The notes under the pieces were generated by a model. It was not told where the DNA came from and did no database searches. It saw only the letters and a program-made list of their open reading frames with translations. Made by a program: the position numbers and the translations under genes. Of a stretch of DNA of 64,000 nt, positions 13,960-45,097 are shown in pieces (within the stretch, counting starts at the first letter, position 1; each line of letters starts with the position of its first letter). The stretch spans positions 2,124 to 66,123 of IMG/VR virus record IMGVR_UViG_3300010218_000003. One strand, 5' to 3'. Source of the stretch: a virus (Duplodnaviria > Heunggongvirae > Uroviricota > Caudoviricetes).

Positions 13960-14033
13960 TAGCCCTGATGGGAGTCGAACCCACATTGACGCGGTGTTTG
14001 AGACCGCCGCATATACCATTCTGCTACAGGGCC
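13960..14033 (-). tRNA. tRNA with anticodon CAA (Leu codon UUG) but short variable arm (class I)
   Basis: acceptor GGCCCTG/CAGGGCT, anticodon stem GCGGT/ACCGC, loop CTCAAAC, T-arm GTGGG-TTCGACT-CCCAT, A73. Confidence 0.65.
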
Positions 14034-14054
14034 AGGGCCTTTCGGCCTTACTTC

Positions 14055-14273
14055 TTAGTCATCAATATACTTGAGATCGCTTACGTTGTCAACACAGGCG
14101 TCCTCACCCCAGATCTTGCCAGAAGCAATACACTTCTGAGCAGTCTGACTCTTGAGATAATCACTGTAGTTGACGCTGAATCCGACTGCCGCAAACAATG
14201 CAATGAACACTGATGCGACAATGAGAGCGACCTTTACGTCATTCTTATCCATCACCACTCTCCAGTGGTGCAC
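14055..14273 (-). CDS. membrane protein
   Basis: 72 aa; TM helix. Confidence 0.45.
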   Translation of the reverse strand: MHHWRVVMDKNDVKVALIVASVFIALFAAVGFSVNYSDYLKSQTAQKCIASGKIWGEDACVDNVSDLKYIDD

Positions 14274-14446
14274 ATCTTGTTGATGCGCTCATTCAGTGCA
14301 TCCATTTGCTCAATGGTTGCATTTGGATTCTGTGAAGAAAACCAAATCATTTCCTTTGCTGACTTCTCGATCCACTCATATGGAGCATCAGGGTGAACAA
14401 GGGCGATGCTTGCCGCAGCAATATCAATGAGACTAGGCATTTGCAA
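14252..14446 (-). CDS. hypothetical protein
   Basis: 64 aa. Confidence 0.4.
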   Translation of the reverse strand: MQMPSLIDIAAASIALVHPDAPYEWIEKSAKEMIWFSSQNPNATIEQMDALNERINKMCTTGEW

Positions 14447-14918
14447 TCCAATCTACTCGCTTTTGGTGAACGGCACAAACAAGGACTCTACCTCGCGCCG
14501 GTCGTCGGTAACGTGTTCCAGCCGTATGACCAGTAGGACAAACAGCCTTCCACTTAGGCGTAGCAGGCTTATAGTTTTCACAGGTATTACCCGTGCAACC
14601 AATCTCAATTGCCTTAGCTCGCCAAACTGCATTGTGACCATGCCCCGGCCCAACCAGAGCGTGTGCAATTTCATGTCTGATTACGTTGTCTACCTGAGAC
14701 TCAGTGAGATTCGGAGTGCAGGTCTTTGACAGCTTAATCATCTTCTGAACGTGGTAAGTGGTTCCGTATGTCTTCACCATACGATTCCACCCAAATTCCC
14801 ACCCTCGTGCGAGCAGGCCATAATCCCACATTAGATCGCGCGCAAGGCGCTCGGCTCGAATGAGATTCACTTGAAACCCTTCGGTCGATGGAGTACCCAC
14901 TAAGAGAATTGAACTCAT
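14433..14918 (-). CDS. SprT-like zinc metalloprotease domain protein
   Basis: HEIAH (HExxH) motif; 161 aa. Confidence 0.65.
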   Translation of the reverse strand: MSSILLVGTPSTEGFQVNLIRAERLARDLMWDYGLLARGWEFGWNRMVKTYGTTYHVQKMIKLSKTCTPNLTESQVDNVIRHEIAHALVGPGHGHNAVWRAKAIEIGCTGNTCENYKPATPKWKAVCPTGHTAGTRYRRPARGRVLVCAVHQKRVDWIANA

Positions 14919-14964
14919 GTCTCCTGCGTGTCGAGCAGGCGCTCTACCATTGAGCTAAGCGGGC
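14894..14964 (-). tRNA. degenerate tRNA-like sequence (possible pseudo-tRNA, anticodon region GAC?)
   Basis: D-arm GCTC/GAGC and T-loop TTCAATT but C33 and mismatched T-stem; overlaps SprT start. Confidence 0.25.
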
Positions 14965-14990
14965 TGGAGGAGTGTTGCCACTCCCATTGT

Positions 14991-15212
14991 TTAAACCGTC
15001 AGACGCTTCTTTACGCCGTTGTAGAGAACCTTCCAGTCCTCTTCTGTCTTGACCTGACCTCGTTGCTCTTCAAACAAGGAGATATAGGCTTCGGCAGCCT
15101 TTCGCTGAGCCATATCAGCCTTACGAGCAACAAGCAAAAGCTCGATGACATCAAGAGTCATACTGCCAAGCTTCTTGCCAGTGTCAATGAGCTTCTTAAA
15201 TTCCTGATCCAT
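14991..15212 (-). CDS. hypothetical protein
   Basis: 73 aa. Confidence 0.45.
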   Translation of the reverse strand: MDQEFKKLIDTGKKLGSMTLDVIELLLVARKADMAQRKAAEAYISLFEEQRGQVKTEEDWKVLYNGVKKRLTV

Positions 15213-15334
15213 GTGAACCTTTCAGAGAGTCCATCGTCCGGGTGCCTTTGCCACTCGCATCATTGCCCATACAAAGACACCGAAACCTGCGAGTCCGATT
15301 GAACCGAGAACAATCAGAACTATTACCCACCAGC

Positions 15335-15538
15335 TCATTTAACCTCCCGATTAGGCGGATCGTAGGCCACGATCTTCTTTGTTGGAATCTTTACCCAGTC
15401 ATACTTACCATCAAAATCTAGTGTGACAGATTTTCTGGTAAGCAACACCACTCTACCATACTTGTTTTTGTAGTTTATTGGCCCGATCCAATGATCTTCT
15501 ACAACCATTGCCCAGCCGCCTACTCTTAGATATGCCAC
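15335..15538 (-). CDS. hypothetical protein
   Basis: 67 aa. Confidence 0.45.
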   Translation of the reverse strand: MAYLRVGGWAMVVEDHWIGPINYKNKYGRVVLLTRKSVTLDFDGKYDWVKIPTKKIVAYDPPNREVK

Positions 15539-15539
15539 G

Positions 15540-15621
15540 TACGCCCACCGGGAGTCGAACCCGGACGCTCATTCGAGCCTAGAGTCTCAGTCTAGTGTGT
15601 CTGCCATTCCACCATGGGCGC
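15540..15621 (-). tRNA. tRNA-Leu (anticodon GAG), long variable arm
   Basis: acceptor GCGCCCA/TGGGCGT, loop CTGAGAC, T-arm CCGGG-TTCGACT-CCCGG. Confidence 0.85.
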
Positions 15622-15647
15622 AATGCTCACCGAAGTGAGCCAGGATT

Positions 15648-15782
15648 TTACTCCTGAATTTCTTTCTGTGAAGCATTCACTCGCTTACCGTTGAGCTGTT
15701 CGATAGTGTAGTTAACCTTTCCGAACACCTCACTCTTAGCGATTACCTTGCCAAGCATCTTGGTCTTCTTCACGGTAACCAT
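15648..15782 (-). CDS. small KOW-like protein (44 aa)
   Basis: manual ORF MVTVKKTKMLGKVIAK... Confidence 0.35.
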   Translation of the reverse strand: MVTVKKTKMLGKVIAKSEVFGKVNYTIEQLNGKRVNASQKEIQE

Positions 15783-15792
15783 GTCACCGAGT

Positions 15793-15978
15793 TTAGCCAA
15801 CCTTTTTCACATCCTCTGGGTTACAGTATACATCTCCACCCTCGTTCAAGTCAACAAGCAACTTGCCGTGAGCAGTGACGAATGAAACCTTACCTCTTTT
15901 ACCGTCGAGCTTACCGCGAGTAAACTCGACCCTATCACCCTTTTTATACATCAGTCGAAGGTAAATCCTGTAGAGCAT
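15793..15978 (-). CDS. small KOW-like protein
   Basis: 61 aa; KKGDRVEF..GK.GKV motif. Confidence 0.5.
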   Translation of the reverse strand: MLYRIYLRLMYKKGDRVEFTRGKLDGKRGKVSFVTAHGKLLVDLNEGGDVYCNPEDVKKVG

Positions 15979-16349
15979 TCCTTGATGATGCGGTCTTCCA
16001 GCTCTTGGAGCTGCTTACCAGTCAGATAACTCTTCGGACGCTTGTCCGTGATCTGGCCATTGTAGTAGTAATAGATTTGATTGGCGCGAGTTCCGTGCTT
16101 GGTGTACGGAATCTTGTTGATTCGCGTCTTCTTGACAAACACGTACTCCATATACACGTATCCATCTGGATTGGTGCCGATATAATGTGACTTATACCTG
16201 TCAGCAATCTCCATGCGTACGTAATATGGAGTGTTTAGCTTGCACCGATTGCATGCCCACCGAAGTGCTTCAACTTCAAGCTTGCGACCGGCGCGTGAAG
16301 TGGCGCTAAGCGGATTACCAACGCCACTAAGGAAGTTCATGATTCCCAT
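15951..16349 (-). CDS. hypothetical protein
   Basis: 132 aa. Confidence 0.5.
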   Translation of the reverse strand: MGIMNFLSGVGNPLSATSRAGRKLEVEALRWACNRCKLNTPYYVRMEIADRYKSHYIGTNPDGYVYMEYVFVKKTRINKIPYTKHGTRANQIYYYYNGQITDKRPKSYLTGKQLQELEDRIIKECSTGFTFD

Positions 16350-16353
16350 TTAA

Positions 16354-16728
16354 TCAGTCCTCGTCAAAGAGTTCCTGGCCGTCCTTGACACAAACCCACT
16401 CGTTGTCGTGGCTCTTGTGACTCTTGGAATGGCCCTTCTTGTTCTTCTTAGACTTCTTGTCCTTGTTCTTGCCACCGCCGAAAAGGCTTCCGAGACCAGA
16501 AGACTTCTTACCAGACTTCTTAGACTTTGAAGGCTTTGACTTTCCAGCAACAAAAGCCATCGGAGCCATGCTCAGATCTTCGAAGTCATCCTCTCGCATG
16601 ACCTTGCCGTGAGCCTTGTCACACCGGCTCTGGAAGTCAGAAGGAGCAGTGTCCTTACAACCAACCAGACCGAAGGCAAGACCCCCGACGACAACGGATG
16701 AGACAGCGATGTTAGTCAGCTTGTTCAT
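16354..16728 (-). CDS. lipoprotein with Lys-rich tail
   Basis: signal peptide + lipobox LVGC. Confidence 0.55.
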   Translation of the reverse strand: MNKLTNIAVSSVVVGGLAFGLVGCKDTAPSDFQSRCDKAHGKVMREDDFEDLSMAPMAFVAGKSKPSKSKKSGKKSSGLGSLFGGGKNKDKKSKKNKKGHSKSHKSHDNEWVCVKDGQELFDED

Positions 16729-16769
16729 TTCGACCCTTCGTCGTTGTTGTTGGTACTACTCTATCGTGC

Positions 16770-17003
16770 TCAGTCTGTGCTGTCAAGGTACTCGAACTCG
16801 GGACCATCAAGGTACCGAGGGAACATGTGCTCCCTGACGTACTTCTCAAGATACACGTTCAGCCAAGCTTGCGCAAGAGCTTCGCTCTTAAAGCCAGACT
16901 TAATAGTCTCTTGACCGTTGTACATAACGCCGATGACTCGCCACTCTGTCATGCTTGCGCGCCATGCGACGATGTTTGCAAACTTTTCTGGATTGGGCAA
17001 CAT
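16770..17003 (-). CDS. hypothetical protein
   Basis: 77 aa. Confidence 0.45.
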   Translation of the reverse strand: MLPNPEKFANIVAWRASMTEWRVIGVMYNGQETIKSGFKSEALAQAWLNVYLEKYVREHMFPRYLDGPEFEYLDSTD

Positions 17004-17191
17004 CAGTTCACCGTCACTTGAATGTCAGATCCTACTACGATCCACCAGAGCCATATCCATCCAGCAGACCATGCCAATGCAATTATTCTTTGCACCGGGG
17101 TCATCTCTGCCGGGATAAAATTTATTGCAATTCCCATGAGCGCCAGCCAGCCAAACAACAGCGTGACTGTGATCATTCCTATGATTTCCAT
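17003..17191 (-). CDS. small membrane protein
   Basis: 62 aa, two TM. Confidence 0.45.
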   Translation of the reverse strand: MEIIGMITVTLLFGWLALMGIAINFIPAEMTPVQRIIALAWSAGWIWLWWIVVGSDIQVTVN

Positions 17192-17202
17192 ACTTCTCCA
17201 AA

Positions 17203-17231
17203 CAGAAGAAGGGGGCCGAAGCCCCCTTCTA
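17203..17231 (-). terminator. hairpin terminator after PNKP gene
   Basis: GAAGGGGGC-CGAA-GCCCCCTTC followed by T-rich run on minus strand. Confidence 0.5.
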
Positions 17232-18122
17232 TCAGAAGTTTCCGGGTGCTACCTGGAAACAGTCTATGCCCATCGCACGCCACATGTCAACAACCTGCTG
17301 ACGATCATCGTACACAGCCACAACATCGTAGATGCCACGAATGTGCTCATCGAACAGCTCTTGCTTGACGATGGAATCCTTGCGCATGTCCCCCTCAGAA
17401 CGCATGTGCAATTCTGAGAAAGGAATGTCGTACAGCTCCAGCCAAGCGATTGTTTCATTACGACATGAGCCGTCTCGTCCGCTCATAACGATGATCTTGT
17501 ATCCTGCCTTCGCGTGAGCCTGGGCAGTCAGAACAACCTGTCGTCGCGGATCATCGTCGCCAACACCCTTCCAGTAGAAAGGATCACGCTCATTCATCTC
17601 AGCAAGGGTTCCGTCGATGTCAAAGAGGTAAACCTTCTCTGCACCTTCGGGACGCTCGTAAGGATGAACAGCCGTGACACTCGTGTGGAAATCAGTGAAG
17701 ATTCCACTAGACTTCATGGACTGATGCATCTTACGAATGACAGACTCAGGGACGTCTCGACCACCGAGCGCAGCACGCACAGTGTTTCGCTGAATTGCCG
17801 TCTCTAGAGAAACGTCAAACTGCTTAACTGAAACACTAGCTCCGTGACGCTGGCCGATCTTAACGAATTCCTTGATGTACTTGTGTCGGATGTTCGTGTC
17901 ATCTACGACCACGGAGTAGCCCTTTGACAGAGCGCCATCGACCATTCCGTGCTCAATTCGAGTAACAAGCTCCTCGTCTACTCCGGTCTCCCGGCCAAAG
18001 AGCTGCATACGAATGTCGTCACGATTGACTCGAACACCATTCGGGTTTTCCTTGAGCCAAACATCATGCGCCCAAGTGCTCTTACCACAACCGGGAATTC
18101 CCCGGAGAATCAGAAGCTGCAT
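17232..18122 (-). CDS. pnkp: polynucleotide 5'-kinase/3'-phosphatase (T4 Pnk-like)
   Basis: N-terminal P-loop GIPGCGKST; C-terminal HAD phosphatase DIDGTLAE. Confidence 0.85.
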   Translation of the reverse strand: MQLLILRGIPGCGKSTWAHDVWLKENPNGVRVNRDDIRMQLFGRETGVDEELVTRIEHGMVDGALSKGYSVVVDDTNIRHKYIKEFVKIGQRHGASVSVKQFDVSLETAIQRNTVRAALGGRDVPESVIRKMHQSMKSSGIFTDFHTSVTAVHPYERPEGAEKVYLFDIDGTLAEMNERDPFYWKGVGDDDPRRQVVLTAQAHAKAGYKIIVMSGRDGSCRNETIAWLELYDIPFSELHMRSEGDMRKDSIVKQELFDEHIRGIYDVVAVYDDRQQVVDMWRAMGIDCFQVAPGNF

Positions 18123-18307: not shown

Positions 18308-18388
18308 TACTTACCTTGGTTGTTTGGATGCCATGGACATGTAGGCTGATGATTGGGGAACGGAGTTCCACAATCCATGCAGAGGAAA

Positions 18389-18670: not shown

Positions 18671-18944
18671 ATGCGGCCATATTGCCGATTAGGGTTTCTG
18701 TAGGATTGTTGTAGTGATTATACTTACGCCGGGCCGTTTCGATATCAGCAGCAAAACTCATGGCTCGATATCCATTGGCAGCGTTTGGAATTTCTTCCTT
18801 AGTCTCCTGAATCATTCGGAGACTTCTCTGTGCACGTTCAAGATCTTCTGTCATCATCAGGTACAGCCGGGCACGCTTCTTACAAAGGTGCCCGGCCAAT
18901 GACCTACGACGAGGATCTTTACGCCACTCCTCGTTAGCCTGCAT
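18651..18944 (-). CDS. hypothetical protein
   Basis: 97 aa. Confidence 0.45.
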   Translation of the reverse strand: MQANEEWRKDPRRRSLAGHLCKKRARLYLMMTEDLERAQRSLRMIQETKEEIPNAANGYRAMSFAADIETARRKYNHYNNPTETLIGNMAAFGEGAE

Positions 18945-20028
18945 TGGTAGGGTGTACGTCCTCTCGCTTGGCCTCCGGCTTGATCTGCTTCCAGATTAGC
19001 TCACTGATGCTGTCCCCGTCAAGCAGGTTGAACATGTGGCTTCTGTACAGATCGATTCGGTTTGCAGCCATAGCGAAGTCACGACGACCCTCACGAGTAG
19101 CAGGATCGAAGCCCTCGGGCATTGAAGAAAGAAGGTTGTGGAAGATCCCACGCACCTCAATCTCAATTCGCTCGTACTCCTCCAGAAGCTTCCCACCAAC
19201 ATCCTTCACAAAACTATGGAACTCGTCAGGCAGAGCCTCACAAATCTCCAAGATTGTGTAACCTTCGGTGAGCTGCTTCCATACAGAGCGCTCAGACAGC
19301 ATAGAGATCATGCGGTGCAGCTCGACGTAATCTGCCTGCTTGATCTTAACCATCTTGTTGCCAGATCGAACTACGAAACCCTCTGCGTTCTTACGGTACT
19401 GCGCGTGTGCAGCCTCACGCAATGACTTGTAATTGAAAACCTCCGTCACCGGCCCGTCCCAATTAACAATTGCCTGAGACTCCAGAGGGCCACAGACGTA
19501 CCCATGCTCCTTGTGAACTGCACCCAAGAGAATAAGGTCATCCATTGAACCGTAGTCCAGAACGATCCTGTTCTCAGGGTAAACAATCTCAAAGATGAAT
19601 GTGTAGTCTGAGACGAACTGAATGTGGCTGTAACGCTCGTTAAGAACACGAGTTGCGTGAATCGCCTGATCTGACATGAATGAACCGCGAGTCGCAATCG
19701 CCAACTGACCACCGTAGGAGTACAGGACTCCCATTGATCCATCCTTCTTGTCCGTAACCTCAACCGGAGCATCCCAGTCAAGCTGTGCAGACTGAGAGTC
19801 ACCCAAATTGAAGAACTTCATGAAAGGACGAGCAATCAGGTTGCCATCAAAGTCAACGATTGTACCGCGACAGTTAAGAGTGCACTCGTTCCACTTTCCA
19901 GCGAACTGAGTCTTCTCTGAGTAGTTAAGAATCTTTAGGGGCAGGACCGGATGAGTTTGCGCCCGGACATAGCCCTCTGAGATCATCTCGTCAAGAAGCT
20001 CCTGTGAGAAGATCTTGGTGAACTGCAT
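18934..20028 (-). CDS. RNA ligase, T4 Rnl1-like (tRNA repair)
   Basis: CRGTIVDFDG...ARPFMKFFNL and KKDGS motif I match T4 gp63/Rnl1 N-terminal region. Confidence 0.85.
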   Translation of the reverse strand: MQFTKIFSQELLDEMISEGYVRAQTHPVLPLKILNYSEKTQFAGKWNECTLNCRGTIVDFDGNLIARPFMKFFNLGDSQSAQLDWDAPVEVTDKKDGSMGVLYSYGGQLAIATRGSFMSDQAIHATRVLNERYSHIQFVSDYTFIFEIVYPENRIVLDYGSMDDLILLGAVHKEHGYVCGPLESQAIVNWDGPVTEVFNYKSLREAAHAQYRKNAEGFVVRSGNKMVKIKQADYVELHRMISMLSERSVWKQLTEGYTILEICEALPDEFHSFVKDVGGKLLEEYERIEIEVRGIFHNLLSSMPEGFDPATREGRRDFAMAANRIDLYRSHMFNLLDGDSISELIWKQIKPEAKREDVHPTNAG

Positions 20029-22328: not shown

Positions 22329-22398
22329 CTGTCACAGTTGGATTCGAACCAACAACATCCTTGGCCTAGGATTGCTTTGCCAATTAAGCTACGTGACA
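22329..22398 (-). tRNA. tRNA-like with non-standard 6-nt anticodon loop (AGGCCA)
   Basis: acceptor TGTCACG/TGTGACA, D-arm GCTT/AAGC, perfect ATCCT/AGGAT stem, T-arm GTTGG-TTCGAAT-CCAAC. Confidence 0.5.
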
Positions 22399-23890: not shown

Positions 23891-23903
23891 GTTGATCCTT
23901 AAG

Positions 23904-23945
23904 TGGAGATGGCGGGAGTCGAACCCGCGTCCTGATGCTTCAAAC
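23904..23945 (-). ncRNA. tRNA 3'-fragment-like element (T-arm + acceptor 3' strand)
   Basis: GCGGG-TTCGACT-CCCGC then CATCTCC-A; no 5' partner found. Confidence 0.25.
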
Positions 23946-24201
23946 AGTAGTCTATACACAGCCATGTGTCAAGCAGGTAAAGCATGTGTTTATCCCCACC
24001 GGGCCAAACATTCGCAACTTTCTGTTCCTAGGCAGTTGCCGCCCGGCCATCACGCCGCTAGGGCGTAGGCAGATGCAACGTTAGAGTTGGCATTTATAGG
24101 TTTGAGGCTTTTTAAAGACATCTCCTCAATGTCTGGCTGCAAACTAAAGTCATCCACCCCAGTCGAAACCAAGGCATCCCCTAGGCCCCGAAGGGCTGTT
24201 C

Positions 24202-26732: not shown

Positions 26733-27065
26733 TTATGCTCCAGGAATGATATCTTTATTTTCAGGGCAGTAGGCTGCTATTGATGCGCCTACGTAGTAAG
26801 ATGTATCGCTAGCTGTGAACTTTAGCGCCGGGCGAGTTCTGCTTACTACAACAAGGAAATTGCGCTCCTCGTCGGCAGTATTGCAGACTTGCTTGGCATT
26901 ATCAACAAGCTTCTGATCAGACATATCTCTGGTGGCTGTGATCTCTTGCCTCACAGTCTGTACAAATGCTTTGTCTCTTGTAGAGAGTTCTGTCTTCTCG
27001 TGACTACATCCTACTACAGTCAGTAGCATTAGTGCAAGACTACTTGTTACCCTTCTTCTTCGCAT
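26733..27065 (-). CDS. lipoprotein
   Basis: signal peptide + lipobox VVGCS. Confidence 0.55.
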   Translation of the reverse strand: MRRRRVTSSLALMLLTVVGCSHEKTELSTRDKAFVQTVRQEITATRDMSDQKLVDNAKQVCNTADEERNFLVVVSRTRPALKFTASDTSYYVGASIAAYCPENKDIIPGA

Positions 27066-27522: not shown

Positions 27523-27594
27523 TGCATGTAGGAGGATTCGAACCTCCGAGGTAGGGCTTTACAGGCCCGCCTAGCTTGTCCCTGGCTTACATGC
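27523..27594 (-). tRNA. tRNA-Tyr (anticodon GTA), short variable arm
   Basis: acceptor GCATGTA/TACATGC, loop CTGTAAA, T-arm GGAGG-TTCGAAT-CCTCC. Confidence 0.75.
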
Positions 27595-34956: not shown

Positions 34957-35060
34957 CCCGGGAAACACGGAATCGAACCGTTCCTGACTTATTCATTGTG
35001 GTCCCTGACGGTATCGCACCGACCTCTAAAGCTTTTCAGGCTATCGCTAATCTATCTCAG
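34957..35060 (-). ncRNA. unassigned structured element with tRNA T-arm (AACGG-TTCGATT-CCGTG) and long hairpins
   Basis: no foldable acceptor/D arms; lies in 1-kb noncoding tRNA region. Confidence 0.25.
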
Positions 35061-35209
35061 CTAAAGGACCAAGCACGGTTTAATTATGAGGAAAACCGTG
35101 AAAGACTCTCACCTTATTGGTAGACGGACCTAGCTAGGCACCTTTCCCGAATGCCCTTCGGGCCTGCGCAAGCCCTAGGGGACCTACATCGGATCGTCAT
35201 CTCAGGCTA

Positions 35210-35290
35210 GCGGAGCGACGGGATTCGAACCCGCAACTGCTACTCTGTTACCTACTAACAGCGTAAGTGCTGCTTTCGGCATTGCATTTC
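35210..35290 (-). ncRNA. tRNA-like element with aberrant body (6-bp CTGTTA/TAACAG hairpin, 5-nt loop)
   Basis: GCGGG-TTCGAAT-CCCGT T-arm and CGCTCCG 3' end, no 5' acceptor partner. Confidence 0.25.
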
Positions 35291-35371
35291 GCCGTTTGAC
35301 CTATTAAACTACACCCCTCATATCAGGAGCGACCTGATATGCATTTGACGGCATCGCGTTTACCATCAAAG

Positions 35372-35452
35372 TAGGCCCGGTGAGACTCGAACTCACAATC
35401 CTTTCGGCACCAGTTCCTAAGACTGGCGTGTATACCATTCCACCACGAGCCC
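35372..35452 (-). tRNA. tRNA-Leu (anticodon TAG), long variable arm
   Basis: acceptor GGGCTCG/CGGGCCT, perfect stem CCAGT/ACTGG, loop CTTAGGA. Confidence 0.85.
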
Positions 35453-35464
35453 ATCAATTATACG

Positions 35465-35538
35465 TACGCCCGGTCGGATTCGAACCGACACTACCAAGGG
35501 TCTAAGCCTTGTGCCTCCTGCCGTTGGGCTACGAGCGC
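35465..35538 (-). tRNA. tRNA with anticodon TAG (Leu codon CUA) but short variable arm (class I)
   Basis: acceptor GCGCTCG/CGGGCGT, perfect stem CAAGG/CCTTG, loop CTTAGAC, A73. Confidence 0.7.
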
Positions 35539-35559: not shown

Positions 35560-35640
35560 TGGATCTGGTGGGAGTCGAACCCACTATCCGTTACCGTTCC
35601 ATTGTCGGCTTTCAGTAACGTCACACCTGTCAGACCCAAA
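35560..35640 (-). ncRNA. tRNA-like element with aberrant body (CGTTAC/GTAACG long hairpin)
   Basis: GTGGG-TTCGACT-CCCAC T-arm; no acceptor pairing. Confidence 0.25.
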
Positions 35641-35745
35641 TTTGACGGAGAGTCCGGCTTCGACCCCGGCATAAGGTTGGTGAGACCTTGATGTAAAACG
35701 TTCCTACTGAGTGACCAACTTTTCGGAACTCTTAACTCTCCTGCG

Positions 35746-39610: not shown

Positions 39611-41239
39611 TCAGATTCGACCTGCGGAGAAGTTGGCTAGGACACGTGGAGCGTTGCTATCAAAGCCAACGAAGTCCATCATTCCACTATCGCTTGGGTC
39701 AGCAATAGTGAATGGCGTTGAAGCGACTCCTAGAACAGCAAGTCGTGCATCAATACCCATGTCCTTACGGTACTTCTTTAGAGCCTGGAATGGGTGAATC
39801 TTGCCAGCCCACGTCTCGTTATCAGTGATAACGACGAAGGTGTCAACCTCAATTCCATTCTCAAGAGCCCACGTCATTGGCAGTGAGCAGTCTGTACCGC
39901 CCCAGTTTACTGAACGCATTGCACTCATTGCCTGAGCAAGAGAGCTGCGACCAGTAATCTTTAGTTCGGTCATACCGCTGTCACGCCAGTTGTACCCCAC
40001 GCTGGAGAAGCCGCGAAGAATGTGAGCTGGCTCTGTACGCGCAATGGTCATCGCCATAGCACCAGCAACTTGTGCACAGCTTAGGTCGAGACCCATAGCC
40101 ATAGCACTCATTGATCCGGAACAGTCGATGGCTAGCATCGTCCTCTTACCGGCTGGCTCAATGGTCTTGAATGACTTGTGGAACGCCTCATCGATTGCAT
40201 CGACAATAACGGCCTCAGTCTCCCAGTTCTTTACACGTCCGCCGTAGTAGTTCTTTCGATCCACCTGGCCTTCTGCGTAAACAACAGCAGCGTTGAGGAA
40301 GTTAATTGGGTGCAGTCGAGACTGACGAATCAACTGTTCATTCGTTAGCTGACCAGCGAAGCTTGCAGCAAACTGCATGTCCTTGAAAGCACCAATACGC
40401 GCGAGGCGAGTGATGTTTCGAACAGCAGCCTGACCACGAAGCTGACCATTAGCGAAGAGCCGCTTCCAGACACTAGCATCCGTGAGGAACTGTGTTGGAA
40501 TTGTCTCCCAAGAAAGCATCTCGTAATCCCGCAGAACTGCGTGAACAGCCTCTACGGACTCCGCCTTCTGCATAAGCTTGAAGCCCTCGATAACCCGAAG
40601 GTCATCTACAGCGTCATGCTCCTTGCCTAGGACGAAATCAGCAACAGACGTGTTAACGTTCTGTGGGTGAGCCTTTCGCATTACGTCTCGCAGCGTCCAG
40701 GTGTTTCCACCGAACTTACGTGAACGATACTTGACTGCCTGGTAAGCGAGCTTATCAGCGTCCTTATCGAACCAGCTAGCTACGATCTCACGCTTTGCGC
40801 GACCCCATCCGCCAAGCTCGTTAAGATAGTTAACTACCTCGTAGAGGTGAGTAGCAGTCCTAACGACCTTGTTGAATACAGCCTTGACCGCCTGCTTATC
40901 CTTGCCGTTGACAATGACAGAGGCTAGAGCGAACAGGGCTGGACTCTGCTTATACGCACGACCATTGACAGATACATCAACGATTGTGTTCAGTACAGAG
41001 GCTTCGTCACGAGCAATGAACTCATTGAGGAAGCTTACGTTGCTCTGGGTGTGGTTAACCTCAGATACGTAATACGTTCCTCCGTCAGTTCCCAGAATCA
41101 GGAAGCGCTCAAGGCGAGACTGATCAGAAACCTGGAAGACGAATCCACCAGCGTTGTTCTTGACCTGCCCGTCCTTAGCCTTCATGGACTGAGAAGTCTT
41201 GTTGGTTGCCTTTGCGGCATTAGTTAGTGCGTTGGACAT
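39611..41239 (-). CDS. rsr: Ro60/Rsr ortholog (TROVE domain + C-terminal vWA/MIDAS)
   Basis: 542 aa; N-terminal TROVE-like region; C-terminal DCSGSMS MIDAS, same TROVE+vWA architecture as Ro60. Confidence 0.75.
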   Translation of the reverse strand: MSNALTNAAKATNKTSQSMKAKDGQVKNNAGGFVFQVSDQSRLERFLILGTDGGTYYVSEVNHTQSNVSFLNEFIARDEASVLNTIVDVSVNGRAYKQSPALFALASVIVNGKDKQAVKAVFNKVVRTATHLYEVVNYLNELGGWGRAKREIVASWFDKDADKLAYQAVKYRSRKFGGNTWTLRDVMRKAHPQNVNTSVADFVLGKEHDAVDDLRVIEGFKLMQKAESVEAVHAVLRDYEMLSWETIPTQFLTDASVWKRLFANGQLRGQAAVRNITRLARIGAFKDMQFAASFAGQLTNEQLIRQSRLHPINFLNAAVVYAEGQVDRKNYYGGRVKNWETEAVIVDAIDEAFHKSFKTIEPAGKRTMLAIDCSGSMSAMAMGLDLSCAQVAGAMAMTIARTEPAHILRGFSSVGYNWRDSGMTELKITGRSSLAQAMSAMRSVNWGGTDCSLPMTWALENGIEVDTFVVITDNETWAGKIHPFQALKKYRKDMGIDARLAVLGVASTPFTIADPSDSGMMDFVGFDSNAPRVLANFSAGRI

Positions 41240-41275
41240 TTCTTTCCTTTCCGGCCCTTTTAGGGCATTTAATTC

Positions 41276-41611
41276 TTAGAGAGTCTTTACGTCATTCCAC
41301 TCAACAGTGGTAACGACCTTCTCTACTCGTTCTAGCAGATAGACATCATCGTCTTCGTACATATTCTCTTGCATCTCTGTCTTACCGCTATCCCAGCGTA
41401 CTCCGACAAAGACACCTTCGTCAACCTCAACGATGTCTAGCATGTGATCCATCCAGCGAGAAGTAGCCTCTTCGACTGTCTCTACATGCTTTAGCTTGAA
41501 CTCATCTTCACCGAGTTCTTCGTTGATTTCATCAACGATATCTTCTGCCCAATAGCTCTGACCAGATGACCACAGCTCCTTGAAACGTGCAATGCGCGCT
41601 TCGGTGTCCAA
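41276..41611 (-). CDS. hypothetical acidic protein
   Basis: 111 aa. Confidence 0.5.
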   Translation of the reverse strand: MDTEARIARFKELWSSGQSYWAEDIVDEINEELGEDEFKLKHVETVEEATSRWMDHMLDIVEVDEGVFVGVRWDSGKTEMQENMYEDDDVYLLERVEKVVTTVEWNDVKTL

Positions 41612-41639
41612 CCTTTGATCCTTTCGTAGACATGAAAAG

Positions 41640-41712
41640 ATCGGGCAAGTTGGTAGGAATCGACCTTATATTTGCAGTGTAAGATAACCGATTCCATTCG
41701 GCCCGATATAAA
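41640..41712 (-). ncRNA. structured element A: nested stems ATCGGGC/GCCCGAT and GGAATCG/CGATTCC, 26-nt apical loop; carries GGGCCGAATGG...CGGTTATC core
   Basis: perfect 7-bp outer and inner stems on minus strand; member of 4-copy family. Confidence 0.35.
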
Positions 41713-41759
41713 GTTGTATGGGTAAGTTGTTGACATCGACCGTAAACCTAGCGCCAAAG

Positions 41760-41830
41760 CAATCCACGGATTCGAACCGTGTTTCGGTCTGTTTCATAGA
41801 CAGATAACCGATAGTCATTCGACCCAAAAG
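41760..41830 (-). ncRNA. tRNA-like element B: GGGTCGAATG core, D-loop-like CGGTTATC, GTCT-ATGAAAC-AGAC hairpin, perfect T-arm CACGG-TTCGAAT-CCGTG, no acceptor pairing
   Basis: immediately 3' of tRNA-Asp on minus strand. Confidence 0.35.
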
Positions 41831-41901
41831 TCCCGACGAAGGGAATCGAACCCTCGATAATACGCTGACAACGTATCGTGTTTCCATTACACTACGCCGG
41901 G
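41831..41901 (-). tRNA. tRNA-Asp (anticodon GTC)
   Basis: acceptor CCCGGCG/CGTCGGG, D GTGT/ACAC, perfect stem ATACG/CGTAT, loop TTGTCAG. Confidence 0.85.
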
Positions 41902-41920
41902 CTAGCCCCGAAGGGCAATA

Positions 41921-42145
41921 TTAGTTCTTGAGCTTCCTCTGAATTTCAGCCTCAGAAATAGGCTTTGAACTGCTCACTGAGAGCTTAGTGCCTCGCGGCA
42001 CGCCGTAATACTGAGACTTTGATTCGAATTCCTTCTTTGCAAACTTCTCTGCTGCTGAGGCGGAAGATGCAACATAAAGATTGGCGAACTCGTGTGTCTT
42101 GTTGCCGACCTTATATGATCCAAGAACCTCAAATGTCTTTGCCAT
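41921..42145 (-). CDS. hypothetical protein
   Basis: 74 aa. Confidence 0.45.
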   Translation of the reverse strand: MAKTFEVLGSYKVGNKTHEFANLYVASSASAAEKFAKKEFESKSQYYGVPRGTKLSVSSSKPISEAEIQRKLKN

Positions 42146-42375
42146 CAGGCTCCTTCTGTCGCCTTTAGATTACGAAGATTCTTATAACCGTCCTGCGGAC
42201 GCTCTCTGATCATTTCCTTGAAGAACTTGTAAGCCTGCCTCAAAGCATCAGCCTTATCCTTTGCAAGGAAGCTCATGTTGAAGTTCAGAACGACATACTT
42301 CTTGTTATTGCGAGCATCACGAGCATCGTACTTTCCCGTGACATTCCAATTGGGCTTCTTGCCAGCTAGAGACAT
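42145..42375 (-). CDS. hypothetical basic protein
   Basis: 76 aa. Confidence 0.45.
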   Translation of the reverse strand: MSLAGKKPNWNVTGKYDARDARNNKKYVVLNFNMSFLAKDKADALRQAYKFFKEMIRERPQDGYKNLRNLKATEGA

Positions 42376-42566
42376 TACTCTACCACGATCTCCATAAAGT
42401 CGGGACGAGCTAGTTCCTTTAGCTCAGCGGCAAATTCCTCAGACGCCAGTTCATGTGTCCAAACTGGACGACCAGCAAGCTCCTCAATATACTCATGCAT
42501 ATCTGAGAAGTCACCGACAAGGATTCCAGTAAACACTGCTACGATAGCAGCTTCGCGCTTGGTCAT
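42375..42566 (-). CDS. hypothetical protein
   Basis: 63 aa. Confidence 0.4.
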   Translation of the reverse strand: MTKREAAIVAVFTGILVGDFSDMHEYIEELAGRPVWTHELASEEFAAELKELARPDFMEIVVE

Positions 42567-42597
42567 TAAACCTCGCTATTATCTTGTTGTTTTGAAG

Positions 42598-42674
42598 CGA
42601 CCCCTACGGGAATCGAACCCGCCTGATGTCTGCCTTGACAGGGCAGTGACCACAACCTAGCAGTCCCAGAGGCC
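42598..42674 (-). tRNA. tRNA-Asp (anticodon GTC), second copy
   Basis: acceptor GGCCTCT/AGGGGTC (GU pairs), perfect stem CTGCC/GGCAG, loop CTGTCAA. Confidence 0.7.
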
Positions 42675-42739
42675 AAACGGTGGCGGGCCGATTCGGATTT
42701 TGTAACCCTTACGACTGACCACCTATAACTACAGTAGCA

Positions 42740-42904
42740 TCAAGGTGAGGGCTTGTCAAACGGCCCGTACTCTCGTACTTCACCGTCCTCGAACTCAACC
42801 GTTACACCTTCTGCAAATGCTTCACGGATCTTTTCTTGTTCTTCTTCCCACTGTGCCATACCCTTGTCAACCATGTCAAGGAAGGCACCAAAGCCAGTGA
42901 ACAT
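42740..42904 (-). CDS. hypothetical acidic protein (54 aa)
   Basis: manual ORF MFTGFGAFLDMVDKGMAQWEEEQEK... Confidence 0.35.
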   Translation of the reverse strand: MFTGFGAFLDMVDKGMAQWEEEQEKIREAFAEGVTVEFEDGEVREYGPFDKPSP

Positions 42905-42912
42905 CTTAATCC

Positions 42913-43164
42913 TTAAGATCCAACTGGTGCTGACTGATAGCCTGCCCAGTAATCGTCATCTTCTAGCCATACTACACGAGTGTTGCCGTTGTGTCCATGA
43001 ATCGCTTCCAGAGTCTCAATGTCTGGATACAAGGCGACTGATGTCCACTGAGACAACCATGACATGGCACACTGCCCGTTGTCAAATTCTACGCCCTGAG
43101 CGACGATGCCTGTACCGCTGACTCCTGATGAGTCGATGTCTCTATGTAGTTCGAACAGTCTCAT
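42913..43164 (-). CDS. hypothetical protein
   Basis: 83 aa. Confidence 0.5.
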   Translation of the reverse strand: MRLFELHRDIDSSGVSGTGIVAQGVEFDNGQCAMSWLSQWTSVALYPDIETLEAIHGHNGNTRVVWLEDDDYWAGYQSAPVGS

Positions 43165-43350
43165 ATATACTATCCTATATTATTATCTAGTATCGATTTC
43201 CAAACCGATTTCACTTACTCTTTTTCTTTTCTCTTCCCAGTATAATTTACCTTAACAGGTCTCTGTCGTTCTGTCAACTCCCTCCTTGTATCCTTTAGAT
43301 ATATGGAGAACCGCAAAGACGTAACCCCTCCGCACCGGGCCGCCGCGCCC

Positions 43351-43490
43351 GTGACAAATGAAAAAAGTGTCACGTGACAGAGTGACACCGTGACATTCTT
43401 CAATGCGTGACAACGTGACAGAGGCCGTGACAGAAGTGTCACTGTCACCATGACATGTCACCTCGATGTCATGACAGTCGTGACATGACA
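43351..43490. repeat. dense array of GTGACA/TGTCAC hexamers (at least 8 direct + 3 inverted in 140 bp), several at 8-bp spacing
   Basis: copies at 43351,43374,43382,43390,43407,43415,43427,43480 and inverted at 43437,43443,43456. Confidence 0.75.
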
Positions 43491-43500
43491 AAAGCCACCC

Positions 43501-43893
43501 TCAGATGTAGAGGATGGCTAGTGTATTGATAGCAATATGAATAGTGTTGTCAGCGATGATCATCAGCCACGTGGTAAGCCACACTGGTGCGTCATCTCTG
43601 TACCCCGTCTTGCTACCTTCGGCCCAGGAGTACCTAAACTCGCGCGGAGCCAATTGGTTTTTTGCCCAGACTACATGACGAGCCAGGCGATAATGGTCAA
43701 TTACGATATGCGTTCCGATGATGACTAGCAAGGCTAGCCATGACTGCGTGACAAAAAGAAATGGAGCACCATATGTCACTCCGTGAAGAATGGCCGGTGC
43801 CCATCTCTTTGTCTTCAATTGAGCCATCCAATCCGTCTGGATTAGATAGTCACCAACAAAGTGCAGTAGAACGCCGATGAGTACGGCATTCAC
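43501..43893 (-). CDS. integral membrane protein
   Basis: 130 aa, multiple TM. Confidence 0.55.
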   Translation of the reverse strand: MNAVLIGVLLHFVGDYLIQTDWMAQLKTKRWAPAILHGVTYGAPFLFVTQSWLALLVIIGTHIVIDHYRLARHVVWAKNQLAPREFRYSWAEGSKTGYRDDAPVWLTTWLMIIADNTIHIAINTLAILYI

Positions 43894-44078
43894 TTCTTCT
43901 TACGTCGTTCCTTTCCCTGCCATAGTTCAACCTGCTCCCAACGCTGAATGTCAGTCCAGCACTGGCACTTTCGAGGATTCTCGGTCTGACAGATTGAACA
44001 CCAGAACTCGATCTTGTTCTTTTCAAGGAACTCGATGAAGTCCTTCTTGTTATTTCCCTTTGGGAATTCCTTAGCCAT
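43890..44078 (-). CDS. zinc-binding protein
   Basis: 62 aa; CSIC...C.C. Confidence 0.45.
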   Translation of the reverse strand: MAKEFPKGNNKKDFIEFLEKNKIEFWCSICQTENPRKCQCWTDIQRWEQVELWQGKERRKKK

Positions 44079-44226
44079 TCCTGTCCTTTGGTGGAAGTGA
44101 TGGTAGAAACCTCTTGCAGTCGTAGCAATAGGCTCTGTTGAATCCGGCTGCTATAATCTCGTCTCCGTAGATCTTTCTTACATTGACGTGATAGCAGTCC
44201 TTCTGCTTCTTTCCTTTTCCTAGCAT
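44071..44226 (-). CDS. small Cys-rich protein (51 aa)
   Basis: manual ORF MLGKGKKQKDCYH...; ATGGCTAA coupling to downstream gene. Confidence 0.4.
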   Translation of the reverse strand: MLGKGKKQKDCYHVNVRKIYGDEIIAAGFNRAYCYDCKRFLPSLPPKDRNG

Positions 44227-44378
44227 ACTGCTCCTATGAAAAAGTCCGGCACATTACGCGCCGGACAATTGGTATGCAGGTGGCCCTACCTAAAAGGTTT
44301 TCTCAGCCATCGCCTAGGTTCAGTCTATATGGCCACTCAGACTCATCCATCATAAGCTATCGTTTCAAGACCTGCAAG

Positions 44379-44466
44379 CGGAGGCGGAGAGATTCGAACT
44401 CTCGCGGCGTATCCCTACACCGTAGGCCGTTCAAAGACCTTCCACACTGCCAACGTTAACGCCTCC
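44379..44466 (-). tRNA. tRNA-Ser (anticodon TGA), long variable arm
   Basis: acceptor GGAGGCG/CGCCTCC, loop TTTGAAC, T-arm GAGAG-TTCGAAT-CTCTC. Confidence 0.85.
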
Positions 44467-44475
44467 ATAAAGCTG

Positions 44476-44700
44476 TCAGCTATCACTGACAACTTCAAGA
44501 TCAGTTTCATTGAAGCCACCCATGACACCAAAGATCTTGTCATTGAGTGATCTGTCGAAGAACTTGATCTCATATTCTCCAGCACCAGCTATCTTGAGCA
44601 TTCTGCTGCGAAGATGAACGGTGCCTTCCTTCCCATAATACTCAGGAAGGATCTTTGGGTTTCCGTGCTTTACCTTTACCCTAGTTCCACACAGTATCAT
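44476..44700 (-). CDS. small KOW-like protein
   Basis: 74 aa; GTRVKVKHG...GKEGTV. Confidence 0.5.
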   Translation of the reverse strand: MILCGTRVKVKHGNPKILPEYYGKEGTVHLRSRMLKIAGAGEYEIKFFDRSLNDKIFGVMGGFNETDLEVVSDS

Positions 44701-44711
44701 TTTACCTCCAG

Positions 44712-44796
44712 CGGAGAGCCCCAGGATCGAACTGGGCCGGGCTGCAACACCCTTAGCGCCTTTCCAAGACGCCCGCTAACCAATCGCTTACTCTCC
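44712..44796 (-). tRNA. tRNA-Ser (anticodon GGA), long variable arm
   Basis: acceptor GGAGAGT/GCTCTCC, stem GCGTC/GGCGC, loop TTGGAAA, T-arm CCCAG-TTCGATC-CTGGG. Confidence 0.8.
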
Positions 44797-44824
44797 AATA
44801 GCCTGAGTGTATCAGGCCCCGTGC

Positions 44825-45004
44825 TTACTTGTCAAGCTTGATCTGCTTAAGAACGACAAGCATAACCTGTCCCTCCCAAGCGCCTTCCTTCATCAGAACC
44901 TTGACAAGAGTAGGATTAGTTCCGAGTTCCCAGATCTCACCCTTCTTCTTGTCAGAGCCAACAATGACCTTGGTGCCGACTTCCAGCTTATCCTTGTTGT
45001 CCAT
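44825..45004 (-). CDS. small KOW-like protein (59 aa)
   Basis: manual ORF MDNKDKLEVGTKVIVGSDKKKGEI... Confidence 0.45.
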   Translation of the reverse strand: MDNKDKLEVGTKVIVGSDKKKGEIWELGTNPTLVKVLMKEGAWEGQVMLVVLKQIKLDK

Positions 45005-45023
45005 TTTGCCTCCAAATAGGGAG

Positions 45024-45097
45024 TGCTCCCAGTCGGACTCGAACCGACACTTTAAACGGGTTTAAGCCGTTCGCCTCTGCCTTTGGGCCACAGGAGC
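45024..45097 (-). tRNA. tRNA with anticodon TAA (Leu codon UUA) but short variable arm (class I)
   Basis: acceptor GCTCCTG/TGGGAGC, perfect stem AACGG/CCGTT, loop CTTAAAC, T-arm GTCGG-TTCGAGT-CCGAC, A73. Confidence 0.7.

Follow-up and report, generated by a model that had tools for sequence, protein, structure and literature searches.

The analysed window, a stretch of 64,000 nucleotides, shares approximately 90% identity with the Karimac/Samisti group of Streptomyces phages and comes from a ~131-kb Streptomyces phage with 48% GC, the GC content of the host being ~72%. Three of its tRNA genes combine leucine anticodons with a short variable arm, and two others are leucine genes with a long arm (Table 1). 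The three short-arm cloverleaves, with anticodons CAA, TAG and TAA, had been proposed by a sequence-only reading of this DNA, and both ARAGORN and Rfam returned the same anticodons. Rfam coordinates coincide exactly with those proposed earlier (74 nt for each gene) and all three scores exceed the RF00005 gathering score of 29 bits, while ARAGORN set the minus-strand borders at 13959–14033 (caa), 35464–35538 (tag) and 45023–45097 (taa). Canonical class-II Leu(GAG) and Leu(TAG), which the same reading had placed alongside, were found as well.

Table 1. Leucine tRNA genes with short and long variable arms in the window
Gene	Codons read	Position	Strand	Support
Short-arm (type I) tRNA-Leu(CAA)	UUG	13960–14033	-	ARAGORN; Rfam RF00005, 56.4 bits
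Short-arm (type I) tRNA-Leu(TAG)	CUA	35465–35538	-	ARAGORN; Rfam RF00005, 54.7 bits
Short-arm (type I) tRNA-Leu(TAA)	UUA	45024–45097	-	ARAGORN; Rfam RF00005, 48.9 bits
Long-arm (class II) tRNA-Leu(GAG)	CUC/CUU	15540–15621	-	ARAGORN; Rfam, 53.6 bits; 14-nt arm
Long-arm (class II) tRNA-Leu(TAG)		35372–35452	-	ARAGORN; Rfam, 55.6 bits; 12–13-nt arm

All three short-arm genes have a 7-bp acceptor stem, T33, A37 and A73, and their 5-bp anticodon stems are perfect (GCGGT/ACCGC, CAAGG/CCTTG and AACGG/CCGTT), in agreement with the earlier manual folding, which gave good cloverleaves with perfect or near-perfect anticodon stems, U33, purine 37 and A73. Automated folding was also used to look for a long arm that might have been overlooked, and none was present in the three genes: their variable loops are unpaired and consist of 5–6 nt (GTCAAT in the CAA gene, GTAGT in the TAG gene and TAAAGT in the TAA gene), which separates them from class-II tRNALeu with its stem-containing arm of more than 10 nt. 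The D-arm of short Leu(CAA) is GCA-GAATGGTATA-TGC, and the long-arm Leu(TAG) has exactly the same D-loop; the D-arms of short Leu(TAG) and short Leu(TAA) are GCC-CAACGGCAGGA-GGC and GCC-CAAAGGCAGA-GGC, respectively. The T-arm of short Leu(TAG), GTCGG-TTCGAAT-CCGAC, is the same as in many chromosomal Streptomyces type-I tRNALeu(CAA) genes. Anticodon TAG is thus represented in two architectures, with the long-arm gene only 12 nt downstream of the short-arm one, and the latter probably reads CUG/CUN besides CUA. In all five leucine genes of the window A73 is followed by C and CCA is not encoded, so that it has to be attached after transcription; the neighboring nucleotidyltransferase ORF matched only RlaP (23.4 bits) and gave no match to a CCA-adding enzyme. 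An RNA-repair set is encoded in the window, composed of an Rnl1-type ligase, PNKP, this RlaP-like nucleotidyltransferase and Ro60. The tRNA array contains also some aberrant members: a Phe gene with defective T-loop, a gene with a 6-nt anticodon loop and a 109-nt tRNA-like gene.

Homologues of short Leu(CAA) were registered in 77 Streptomyces phage records, every one annotated as tRNA-Leu, and relatives of short Leu(TAG) and short Leu(TAA) in 183 and 49 phage records, respectively; in GenBank relatives the homologues are labeled tRNA-Leu(caa/tag/taa). For 29 distinct short-arm leucine tRNAs 99.7% of the cells in stem positions are paired, compared with 66.4 ± 1.4% in shuffled sequences, and 18 of the 20 stem pairs have undergone compensatory double changes. 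The variable loop is confined to 5–7 nt in the whole set, T8 is present in 29/29 and A14 in 28/29 sequences, while T8, G18G19, the T-loop and A73 are invariant. Since homologues are present in many phage records and their stems covary, the short-arm leucine genes are real and conserved, rather than chance cloverleaves, and the pairing and compensatory changes indicate that they evolve under purifying selection. Gene content of the tRNA array differs from one related phage to another. In phages Tomas and Roots515 every leucine tRNA has a short arm, which speaks for a need for such genes.

Likeness to other leucine tRNAs was estimated with a covariance model, R1, for which 24 type-I tRNALeu(CAA) genes from chromosomes were the sole source. 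Among all tRNAs of the window this model placed exactly the three short-arm genes at the top (TAG, 66.4 bits; TAA, 66.0 bits; CAA, 57.1 bits); scores from isotype-specific models had been proposed as a check by the sequence-only reading. The best non-leucine tRNA of the window reached 51.5 bits, leaving a gap of 14.5 bits for the TAG and TAA genes and of 5.6 bits for the CAA gene, the latter margin being possibly in part or largely due to the match with the invariant CAA anticodon of the model. When R1 was applied to 12 other phage loci, the best 19 matches were all short-arm leucine tRNAs (19/19), and with masked anticodon short Leu(TAG) ranked first of 394 phage tRNAs by its closeness to host type-I tRNALeu. 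Whole-sequence identity alone did not separate the short-arm leucine genes from other isotypes. Identity elements, whose comparison had also been suggested, point in the same direction: the three genes share with class-II tRNALeu the Leu-type D-arm, U8-A14, A15:U48 and A73, having T8, A14 and a variable loop that ends with T48 in each case. A signature composed of non-Watson-Crick 13:22 (3-bp D-stem), A14, A15, T48 and A73 was found in 27 of 33 short-arm and in 12 of 12 long-arm leucine tRNAs but in only 3 of 349 others, although the Fisher p-value is inflated, because related phages contribute homologues that do not count as independent.

According to published descriptions, tRNALeu of bacteria is almost always type II, and this was the premise on which the charging of the three tRNAs had seemed unclear. 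It fails for Streptomyces: in S. coelicolor a type-I tRNALeu(CAA) whose variable loop has 5 nt is encoded on the chromosome and is essential (Fan, Huang, Ji & Wang 2019, Nucleic Acids Res 47:6369; PMC6614811). Its sole LeuRS charges this tRNA with kcat/Km of 6.25 s-1 uM-1, compared with 14.2 s-1 uM-1 for type II, and LeuRS of a Streptomyces strain devoid of the type-I gene charges it too; these two Streptomyces enzymes are the ones assayed (PMC6614811), while the phages were isolated on S. griseus and other hosts. The S. coelicolor enzyme needs U8-A14, C74 and a variable loop of no fewer than 5 nt in which nucleotide 48 is present, whereas A73 is dispensable; human mt-tRNALeu(UUR) is not charged by it (PMC6614811). 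Thus, the structural part of the sequence-only reading, short-arm leucine tRNAs beside long-arm ones, held, while its class-II premise did not hold for this host genus. The phage genes resemble the S. coelicolor tRNA in the leucine anticodon, the length of 73–74 nt, the unpaired variable loop of the 5-nt class, the 3-bp D-stem with unpaired C13/A22, the D-loop CA(R)NGGYAGA, as well as in U8-A14, G18G19 and A73. They differ from it by the Levitt pair (A15:U48 instead of G15:C48), by mostly G1:U72 and by the sequences of their variable loops (ACAGC in the host). Furthermore, the host gene has only the CAA anticodon, is chromosomal and its charging was measured, while the phage family, known from sequence, covers CAA, UAG, UAA and, in relatives, GAG/CAG. 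The CAA gene of the window makes a separate sub-lineage, having the D-loop of the long-arm Leu(TAG).

With class-II tRNALeu, such as those of E. coli and the Streptomyces bldA tRNALeu(UAA), the short-arm genes have in common A73, A14, A15:U48, G18G19, the 3-bp D-stem with unpaired 13/22, the purine-rich extended D-loop (GAATGGYAKA) and codon assignments, but they lack the defining variable stem-loop of 10–17 nt. Animal mitochondrial tRNALeu(UUR) and tRNALeu(CUN), charged by a LeuRS of bacterial type, are similar in their class-I architecture and A73; however, they belong to an unrelated lineage with reduced elbow interactions. Another related case comes from Mycobacterium mucogenicum/phocaicum, whose acquired tRNA clusters contain a short-loop tRNALeu(TAG) (Behra et al. 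2019, BMC Evol Biol 19:124; PMC6582537). There, too, the gene lies in a dense, horizontally acquired tRNA array and coexists with normal long-arm chromosomal isoacceptors, but it was noted merely as a structural oddity and linked neither to phages, nor to Streptomyces type-I tRNALeu, nor to LeuRS specificity (PMC6582537). Related short-arm genes were found in mycobacteriophages of the ~155-kb Bixzunavirus group.

Based on these data one can assume, with a probability of about 85%, that the three genes encode functional type-I leucine isoacceptors, charged by LeuRS of the host and decoding codons that are rare there. The anticodon is not among the features recognized by bacterial LeuRS, and Streptomyces LeuRS is known to accept a type-I tRNALeu with U8-A14 and a loop of at least 5 nt, which is why charging by the host enzyme is proposed. 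The three tRNAs would be transcribed, processed at their ends, supplied with CCA and then leucylated by the host's own LeuRS; together with the two long-arm tRNAs they would enable the phage to decode UUG, CUA and UUA with tRNAs of its own. Codon usage in the window (13,852 codons) is 16.4 CTA, 9.7 TTG and 1.7 TTA per 1000, and CUA makes up 21% of phage leucine codons. The whole S. coelicolor genome contains 6,706 UUG and 145 UUA codons (PMC6614811). All three codons are far commoner in phage genes, and in the host they are rare to nearly absent. Short Leu(TAA) is a phage-borne functional analogue of the tRNA that the developmental gene bldA encodes. Decoding of UUA in the host rests on the single bldA tRNA, which is dispensable for growth.

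Short-arm tRNALeu is not confined to phages of Streptomyces. In viral tRNA arrays that were not selected on leucine it accounts for 14 of 36 leucine genes (~40%), short arms being registered in 0 of 23 serine and 0 of 18 tyrosine genes, and it occurs in cultured phages of four phyla: Proteobacteria, Firmicutes, Cyanobacteria and Actinobacteria. We found no prior report in the literature of such a wide distribution in viruses or across the four phyla. It is conceivable, though rather doubtful, that short-arm tRNALeu forms a virus-associated lineage spread across at least four phyla, with type-I tRNALeu(CAA) of Streptomyces/Kitasatospora as its domesticated member or its source; such a lineage could have diversified freely over all leucine anticodons because LeuRS ignores the anticodon. 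If so, LeuRS of Acinetobacter, Pseudomonas, Enterococcus, Synechococcus and Mycobacterium must accept type-I tRNALeu, in contradiction to the published view that only the Streptomyces enzyme does, the origin of the type-I gene having been left unexplained by its discoverers (PMC6614811).

The short arm may also be adaptive in itself, which would complement the reading of the genes as ordinary isoacceptors. Charged with leucine, short-arm tRNAs would escape host factors acting on class-II tRNAs, for instance toxins or nucleases that grip the long variable arm, or the means by which the host controls how bldA-type tRNAs mature, and would serve as attack-resistant spares. The coexistence of both architectures for one anticodon at a distance of 12 nt, the viral enrichment in leucine but not in serine or tyrosine genes and the RNA-repair set, suggestive of a tRNA-directed conflict, are in line with this idea, as is the nearly exceptionless type-II rule for bacterial tRNALeu (PMC6614811). 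The actinobacterial toxin MenT3 provides a precedent, as its substrate determinant is the long variable loop of tRNASer; however, it acts weakly on tRNALeu and tRNATyr, with activity on leucine tRNA below about 5% of that on serine tRNA and no effect in vivo (PMC11162799). Moreover, viral tRNASer, the main target of MenT3, has retained the long arm that SerRS needs, no Streptomyces toxin is known to target tRNALeu via its long arm, and the host itself uses type-I tRNALeu, so that within this genus no particular reason for a short arm has to be sought. Selection for evading toxins that depend on the long arm may thus have contributed, but on balance this is unlikely.

A much poorer fit is charging by another synthetase or with another amino acid, resulting in recoding or mistranslation at UUG, CUA and UUA, as the sequence-only reading had suggested. 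It could appeal to the textbook expectation of a long arm and to the reported failure of E. coli LeuRS to charge Streptomyces type-I tRNALeu, but LeuRS of the host genus does charge it (PMC6614811). The three genes are the best matches of the window to the type-I model and bear the leucine D-arm signature. For most other synthetases the anticodon is part of tRNA recognition, and these enzymes would not accept CAA, UAG and UAA; SerRS requires the long variable arm, absent here, and 3:70 pairs of the three genes are C:G, G:C and T:A, so that G3:U70, recognized by AlaRS, is missing. No synthetase gene was found among window ORFs of at least 250 aa, 9 of 12 of which were scanned against Pfam. Anticodons of suppressor tRNAs (CTA, TTA or TCA) are not present either, as CAA, TAG and TAA pair with sense codons, and systematic miscoding of CUA, given its share of phage leucine codons, would harm every phage protein. 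Equally improbable is that these are decaying long-arm genes with deletions, kept by chance in a fast-evolving array, since, even though this array has aberrant members and variable content, stem pairing was maintained by compensatory changes across divergent phages, T8, G18G19, the T-loop and A73 stayed invariant, some phages have no leucine tRNAs except short-arm ones and a chromosomal tRNA with this architecture is essential in the host genus (PMC6614811). Most likely, therefore, we deal with ordinary leucine-accepting isoacceptors and not with a recoding device.

Odd as they look, these tRNAs fit a known and biochemically validated exception of the host genus, and in genome annotation a disagreement between isotype models over short-arm leucine genes should not be taken as a mark of pseudogenes or recoding. 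The data raise the questions of a wider LeuRS tolerance to type-I tRNALeu, of the origin of the Streptomyces type-I gene and of the long arm as a possible liability during infection. For the phage itself the result would explain how a genome with 48% GC can have its CUA-, UUG- and UUA-containing genes translated in a host with 72% GC.

ARAGORN placed 41 tRNA genes and a tmRNA in the window, without exception on the minus strand and within 6.6-50.1 kb; Rfam gave 39 tRNA matches plus the tmRNA. GC content of the window is 48%, and a 12-kb stretch of it is about 90% identical to the ~131-kb Streptomyces phages of the Karimac/Samisti group (family Stanwilliamsviridae); Streptomyces is the host of all 103 records matching this stretch. 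The three leucine-anticodon cloverleaves with short variable loops (short-arm, or type I) noticed in the sequence-only reading were located at the same places by both programs, as ARAGORN also located the canonical long-arm (type II) Leu(GAG) and Leu(TAG) reported alongside. Automated folding returned the same anticodons with no alternative register seen, and a long arm possibly overlooked by eye was searched for in the same way and not found. In all three genes the acceptor stem is regular (7 bp) and the anticodon stem perfect (5 bp); T33, A37 and A73 are present, and the variable loop contains no stem (sequence and ARAGORN parse). These genes are real and conserved; in GenBank records of the relatives their homologues are labelled plainly tRNA-Leu(caa), tRNA-Leu(tag) and tRNA-Leu(taa), the length being passed over without comment.

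Features of the tRNA array and adjoining DNA in the window
Feature	Position	Strand	Details
short-arm tRNA-Leu(CAA)	13960-14033	-	Rfam 56.4 bits; variable loop GTCAAT; anticodon stem GCGGT/ACCGC
long-arm tRNA-Leu(GAG)	15540-15621	-	ARAGORN
PNKP	17232-18122	-	RNA-repair gene within tRNA array
T4 Rnl1-type RNA ligase	18934-20028	-	RNA-repair gene within tRNA array
tRNA-like gene	22329-22398	-	6-nt anticodon loop; two-base anticodon 'gc' by ARAGORN
tmRNA	23901-24181		tag ANSNVASAYALAA
tRNA-Tyr(GTA)-like gene	27523-27594	-	72 nt; short arm; A73; weak D-arm
tRNA-Phe(GAA)	34999-35070	-	missed by default ARAGORN; Rfam 44 bits
tRNA-like element	35210-35318	-	109 nt; ~35-nt insertion; Rfam tRNA 31.5 bits
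long-arm tRNA-Leu(TAG)	35372-35452	-	ARAGORN; 12 nt downstream of short-arm Leu(TAG)
short-arm tRNA-Leu(TAG)	35465-35538	-	Rfam 54.7 bits; variable loop GTAGT; anticodon stem CAAGG/CCTTG
Ro60 orthologue	39611-41239	-	TROVE and vWA domains
short-arm tRNA-Leu(TAA)	45024-45097	-	Rfam 48.9 bits; variable loop TAAAGT; anticodon stem AACGG/CCGTT
tRNA-Ile(TAT)	45306-45379	-	direct AUA decoder; kept in relatives
RlaP-like nucleotidyltransferase	47580-48101	-	adjoins array; RlaP family match

The charging identity of such molecules had seemed unclear on the premise that bacterial tRNA-Leu is class II, which fails for Streptomyces. The chromosome of S. coelicolor carries a type-I tRNALeu(CAA) with a 5-nt variable loop ACAGC (Fan et al. 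2019, PMC6614811), deletion of this gene was not achievable, and the single LeuRS of the bacterium (ScoLeuRS) charges its product with kcat/Km of 6.25 s-1 uM-1; the bldA tRNA, which is type II, reaches 14.2. Since ScoLeuRS accepts this substrate, the question of how a short-arm tRNALeu is charged has already been answered experimentally in Streptomyces. According to the same paper, U8-A14 and C74 serve as identity elements and A73 is not needed, the variable loop must supply five or more nucleotides, nt 48 among them, and it is the leucine-specific domain that enables ScoLeuRS to charge type I. A Streptomyces strain without the type-I gene has a LeuRS that charges type-I tRNALeu all the same, while E. 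coli LeuRS takes type II only; A15:U48, G18G19, A14 and A73 are listed in the introduction of PMC6614811 as identity elements of the E. coli type. Phages are not mentioned there.

Chromosomal type-I tRNALeu(CAA) genes were obtained by a pattern scan with one genome per species. At its matches 89 CAA tRNAs were called, 87 being 73-74-nt genes of Streptomyces or Kitasatospora and two lying at other loci. Non-actinobacterial matches (Bdellovibrio, Micavibrio and others) were not CAA tRNAs, except for L069 (a Planctomycetota MAG) and L118, which have chromosomal 73-nt tRNALeu(CAA) genes with the ACAGC loop and a D-arm of like type, so among cellular genomes type-I tRNALeu is not limited to Streptomyces and Kitasatospora. 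The D-arm of the chromosomal genes (GCC-CAGCGGTAGA-GGC) is close to those of the window TAG and TAA genes, and their T-arm (GTCGG-TTCGAAT-CCGAC) is identical in the former and close in the latter. For one host type-I gene used as a query with masked anticodon, the window TAG gene came closest among 394 phage tRNAs; once the anticodon arm was taken out, short-arm Leu filled all six top places.

Whole-sequence comparison within the window (anticodon loop and variable region removed) did not set short-arm Leu apart from other isotypes: the TAG and TAA genes were mutually closest (76%), and the remaining neighbours were Lys, Glu and Arg. Because of this mixture of isotypes, global identity was dropped in favor of a structural signature and a covariance model (R1), which had 24 distinct chromosomal type-I genes as its sole input and was used as an isotype-specific model. 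Its top three in the window are precisely the genes under study (TAG 66.4, TAA 66.0 and CAA 57.1 bits), followed among non-Leu tRNAs by Ile(TAT) with 51.5 bits; the chance that three named genes occupy the top of about 44 is near 1 in 13,000. The TAG and TAA genes lead this ranking despite the mismatch to the invariant CAA anticodon of the model, while the smaller margin of the CAA gene may come partly from its anticodon match. The D-loop of the latter, GAATGGTATA, is the entire D-loop of long-arm Leu(TAG), as follows from the structural parse. On twelve other phage loci the best 19 matches of R1 were all short-arm Leu.

A common signature was looked for in 45 Leu tRNAs from 13 phage loci (33 short-arm and 12 long-arm). 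A73 and a 3-bp D-stem with unpaired positions 13 and 22 are present in 45/45, A14, A15 and T48 in nearly all. Short-arm Leu showed the full combination in 27/33 cases and long-arm Leu in 12/12, whereas among the other tRNAs it was limited to 3/349 (p = 2e-32, a value inflated by relatedness of the genes). In the TAG gene of Streptomyces phage Tomas G15:C48 replaces A15:T48, a double change that keeps the Levitt pair. The MAFFT alignment of phage members was rejected for pair counting, because loops of 5 or 6 nt opened a gap inside the anticodon stem, and pairs were counted from the ARAGORN structural parse. Among 29 distinct short-arm Leu, standard pairs occupy 99.7% of stem positions versus 66.4 +/- 1.4% with shuffled partners, and compensatory double changes were detected at 18/20 pairs; the variable loop is 5-7 nt throughout, T8 is invariant and A14 occurs in 28/29. 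Two phages, Tomas and mycobacteriophage Roots515, have solely short-arm Leu tRNAs; Leu(GAG) of Tomas (35597-35672) is also short-armed, so that its complete set of four Leu tRNAs is type I. The anticodons of the phage short-arm family, CAA, TAG, TAA, GAG and CAG, comprise every Leu anticodon, and genes sharing one D-arm bear different ones (Tomas GAG and Daubenski TAG). Such anticodon exchange is expected if LeuRS ignores the anticodon.

These data leave little doubt that the three tRNAs are normal leucine isoacceptors and belong to the type-I kind validated in the host genus, and we infer their leucylation from this likeness; unlike the Streptomyces type-I tRNALeu, their family is phage-borne and multi-anticodon. 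In 13,852 codons of minus-strand window ORFs, CTA, TTG and TTA account for 16.4, 9.7 and 1.7 per 1000 codons (21, 12.6 and 2.2% of Leu), while the whole S. coelicolor genome contains 6,706 UUG and only 145 UUA codons (PMC6614811), the bldA tRNA being the sole reader of UUA in Streptomyces. Judging by these counts, the short-arm genes cover exactly the A/U-rich Leu codons with the poorest host supply. A paper on UUA and Streptomyces phages (RNA Biology 2023, PMC10732093) contains nothing on phage tRNA architecture.

As a supplement to the isoacceptor reading, loss of the arm may shield phage tRNALeu from host factors that grip it. MenT3 offers a precedent, using the long loop of tRNASer as a handle, although its action on Leu and Tyr is weak (PMC11162799), and the RNA-repair set of the window (Rnl1-type ligase, PNKP, RlaP-like nucleotidyltransferase and Ro60) is in line with this idea. 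Recoding or mistranslation, as well as charging by a different aaRS, both proposed from the sequence alone, are not supported: the anticodons are sense ones, G3:U70 and a long arm are both absent, and miscoding of CUA would strike a fifth of Leu positions. Neither LeuRS nor another synthetase was found among window ORFs of at least 250 aa (9/12 scanned against Pfam); the 1089-aa ORF is DNA polymerase III alpha. The assumption that the genes are pseudogenes is ruled out by covariation.

Several other members of the array are unusual. The Tyr-like gene was called by Rfam (35.5 bits) and relaxed ARAGORN only, is 93% identical to an unannotated Karimac copy (26915-26986), and 72-nt tRNA-Tyr genes are annotated in relatives. 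Since the canonical 84-nt long-arm tRNA-Tyr of Karimac has no match in the window, the short-arm gene may be the sole Tyr tRNA there; a short-arm bacterial tRNATyr charged by TyrS would be unusual. The homologous position of tRNA-Phe is annotated as tRNA-Phe in Karimac, and its T-loop is TGCGATA in place of TTCGAAT, with loss of the T54-T55-C56 motif. The 109-nt element is Cys(gca) with an intron according to relaxed ARAGORN, and a 107-nt 'tRNA-Tyr' occupies the equivalent place in Mildred21; as the Ro60 gene lies about 4-6 kb off, the element may act not in decoding but as a partner RNA of Y-RNA-like or tRNA-like type. The gene with the 6-nt anticodon loop is kept in Karimac, annotated as tRNA-OTHER Ala|Gly(gc). 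Direct AUA decoders are rare in bacteria, which normally use a lysidine-modified CAU tRNA. In Mildred21 an annotated 72-nt 'tRNA-Ser(tga)' (11901-11972) was not reproduced as a Ser tRNA by ARAGORN. A striking peculiarity shared by many phage tRNAs of several isotypes is the G1:U72 wobble closing the acceptor stem (array 6667-50130 and loci L002-L013): Leu 38/45, Glu 16/18, Ile 13/18, Val 11/19, Lys 10/30, Arg 9/28 and Met 8/18. PNKP, the Rnl1-type ligase, Ro60 and the RlaP-like protein are RNA-repair or RNA-quality-control genes embedded in the array. The nucleotidyltransferase is annotated as 'tRNA nucleotidyltransferase' in one relative; it is not counted here as a CCA-adding enzyme, the RlaP RNA-repair family being the sole match at threshold.

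Relatives of the TAG-type gene were found by blastn in 183 phage records, 87 of Streptomyces and 86 of Mycobacterium, and also in phages of Gordonia, Rhodococcus, Acinetobacter and Synechococcus; Enterococcus and Pseudomonas phages supplied additional short-arm members. Genes confirmed by ARAGORN and R1 belong to Rhodococcus phage Trina (67.5 bits), mycobacteriophages Roots515 (62.2 and 61.2) and DyoEdafos (58.5), Streptomyces phage WRightOn (60.1), Acinetobacter phage YMC13/03/R2096 (61.8), Enterococcus phage EFGrNG (57.9), Pseudomonas phage Y1-MI (53.0) and Synechococcus phage S-CREM1 (81.2). No Escherichia phage was among the blastn matches, which is weakly consistent with the rejection of type I by E. 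coli LeuRS. In uncultivated viral contigs the D-arm motif of the short-arm family marked 124 tRNAs, all with a variable region of 4-6 nt and A73, and 122 had a Leu anticodon. In viral contigs picked by an unrelated tRNA-Met motif, short arms were registered in 14/36 tRNA-Leu, 0/23 tRNA-Ser and 0/18 tRNA-Tyr. No description of short-arm tRNALeu as a phage feature was found in the literature searched, which does not prove its absence; closest comes PMC6582537, where a single gene of this sort is remarked upon in a tRNA cluster of mycobacteria. Viral short-arm tRNALeu is frequent across several phyla and kin to an unexplained chromosomal gene of Streptomyces, and as such it deserves follow-up.
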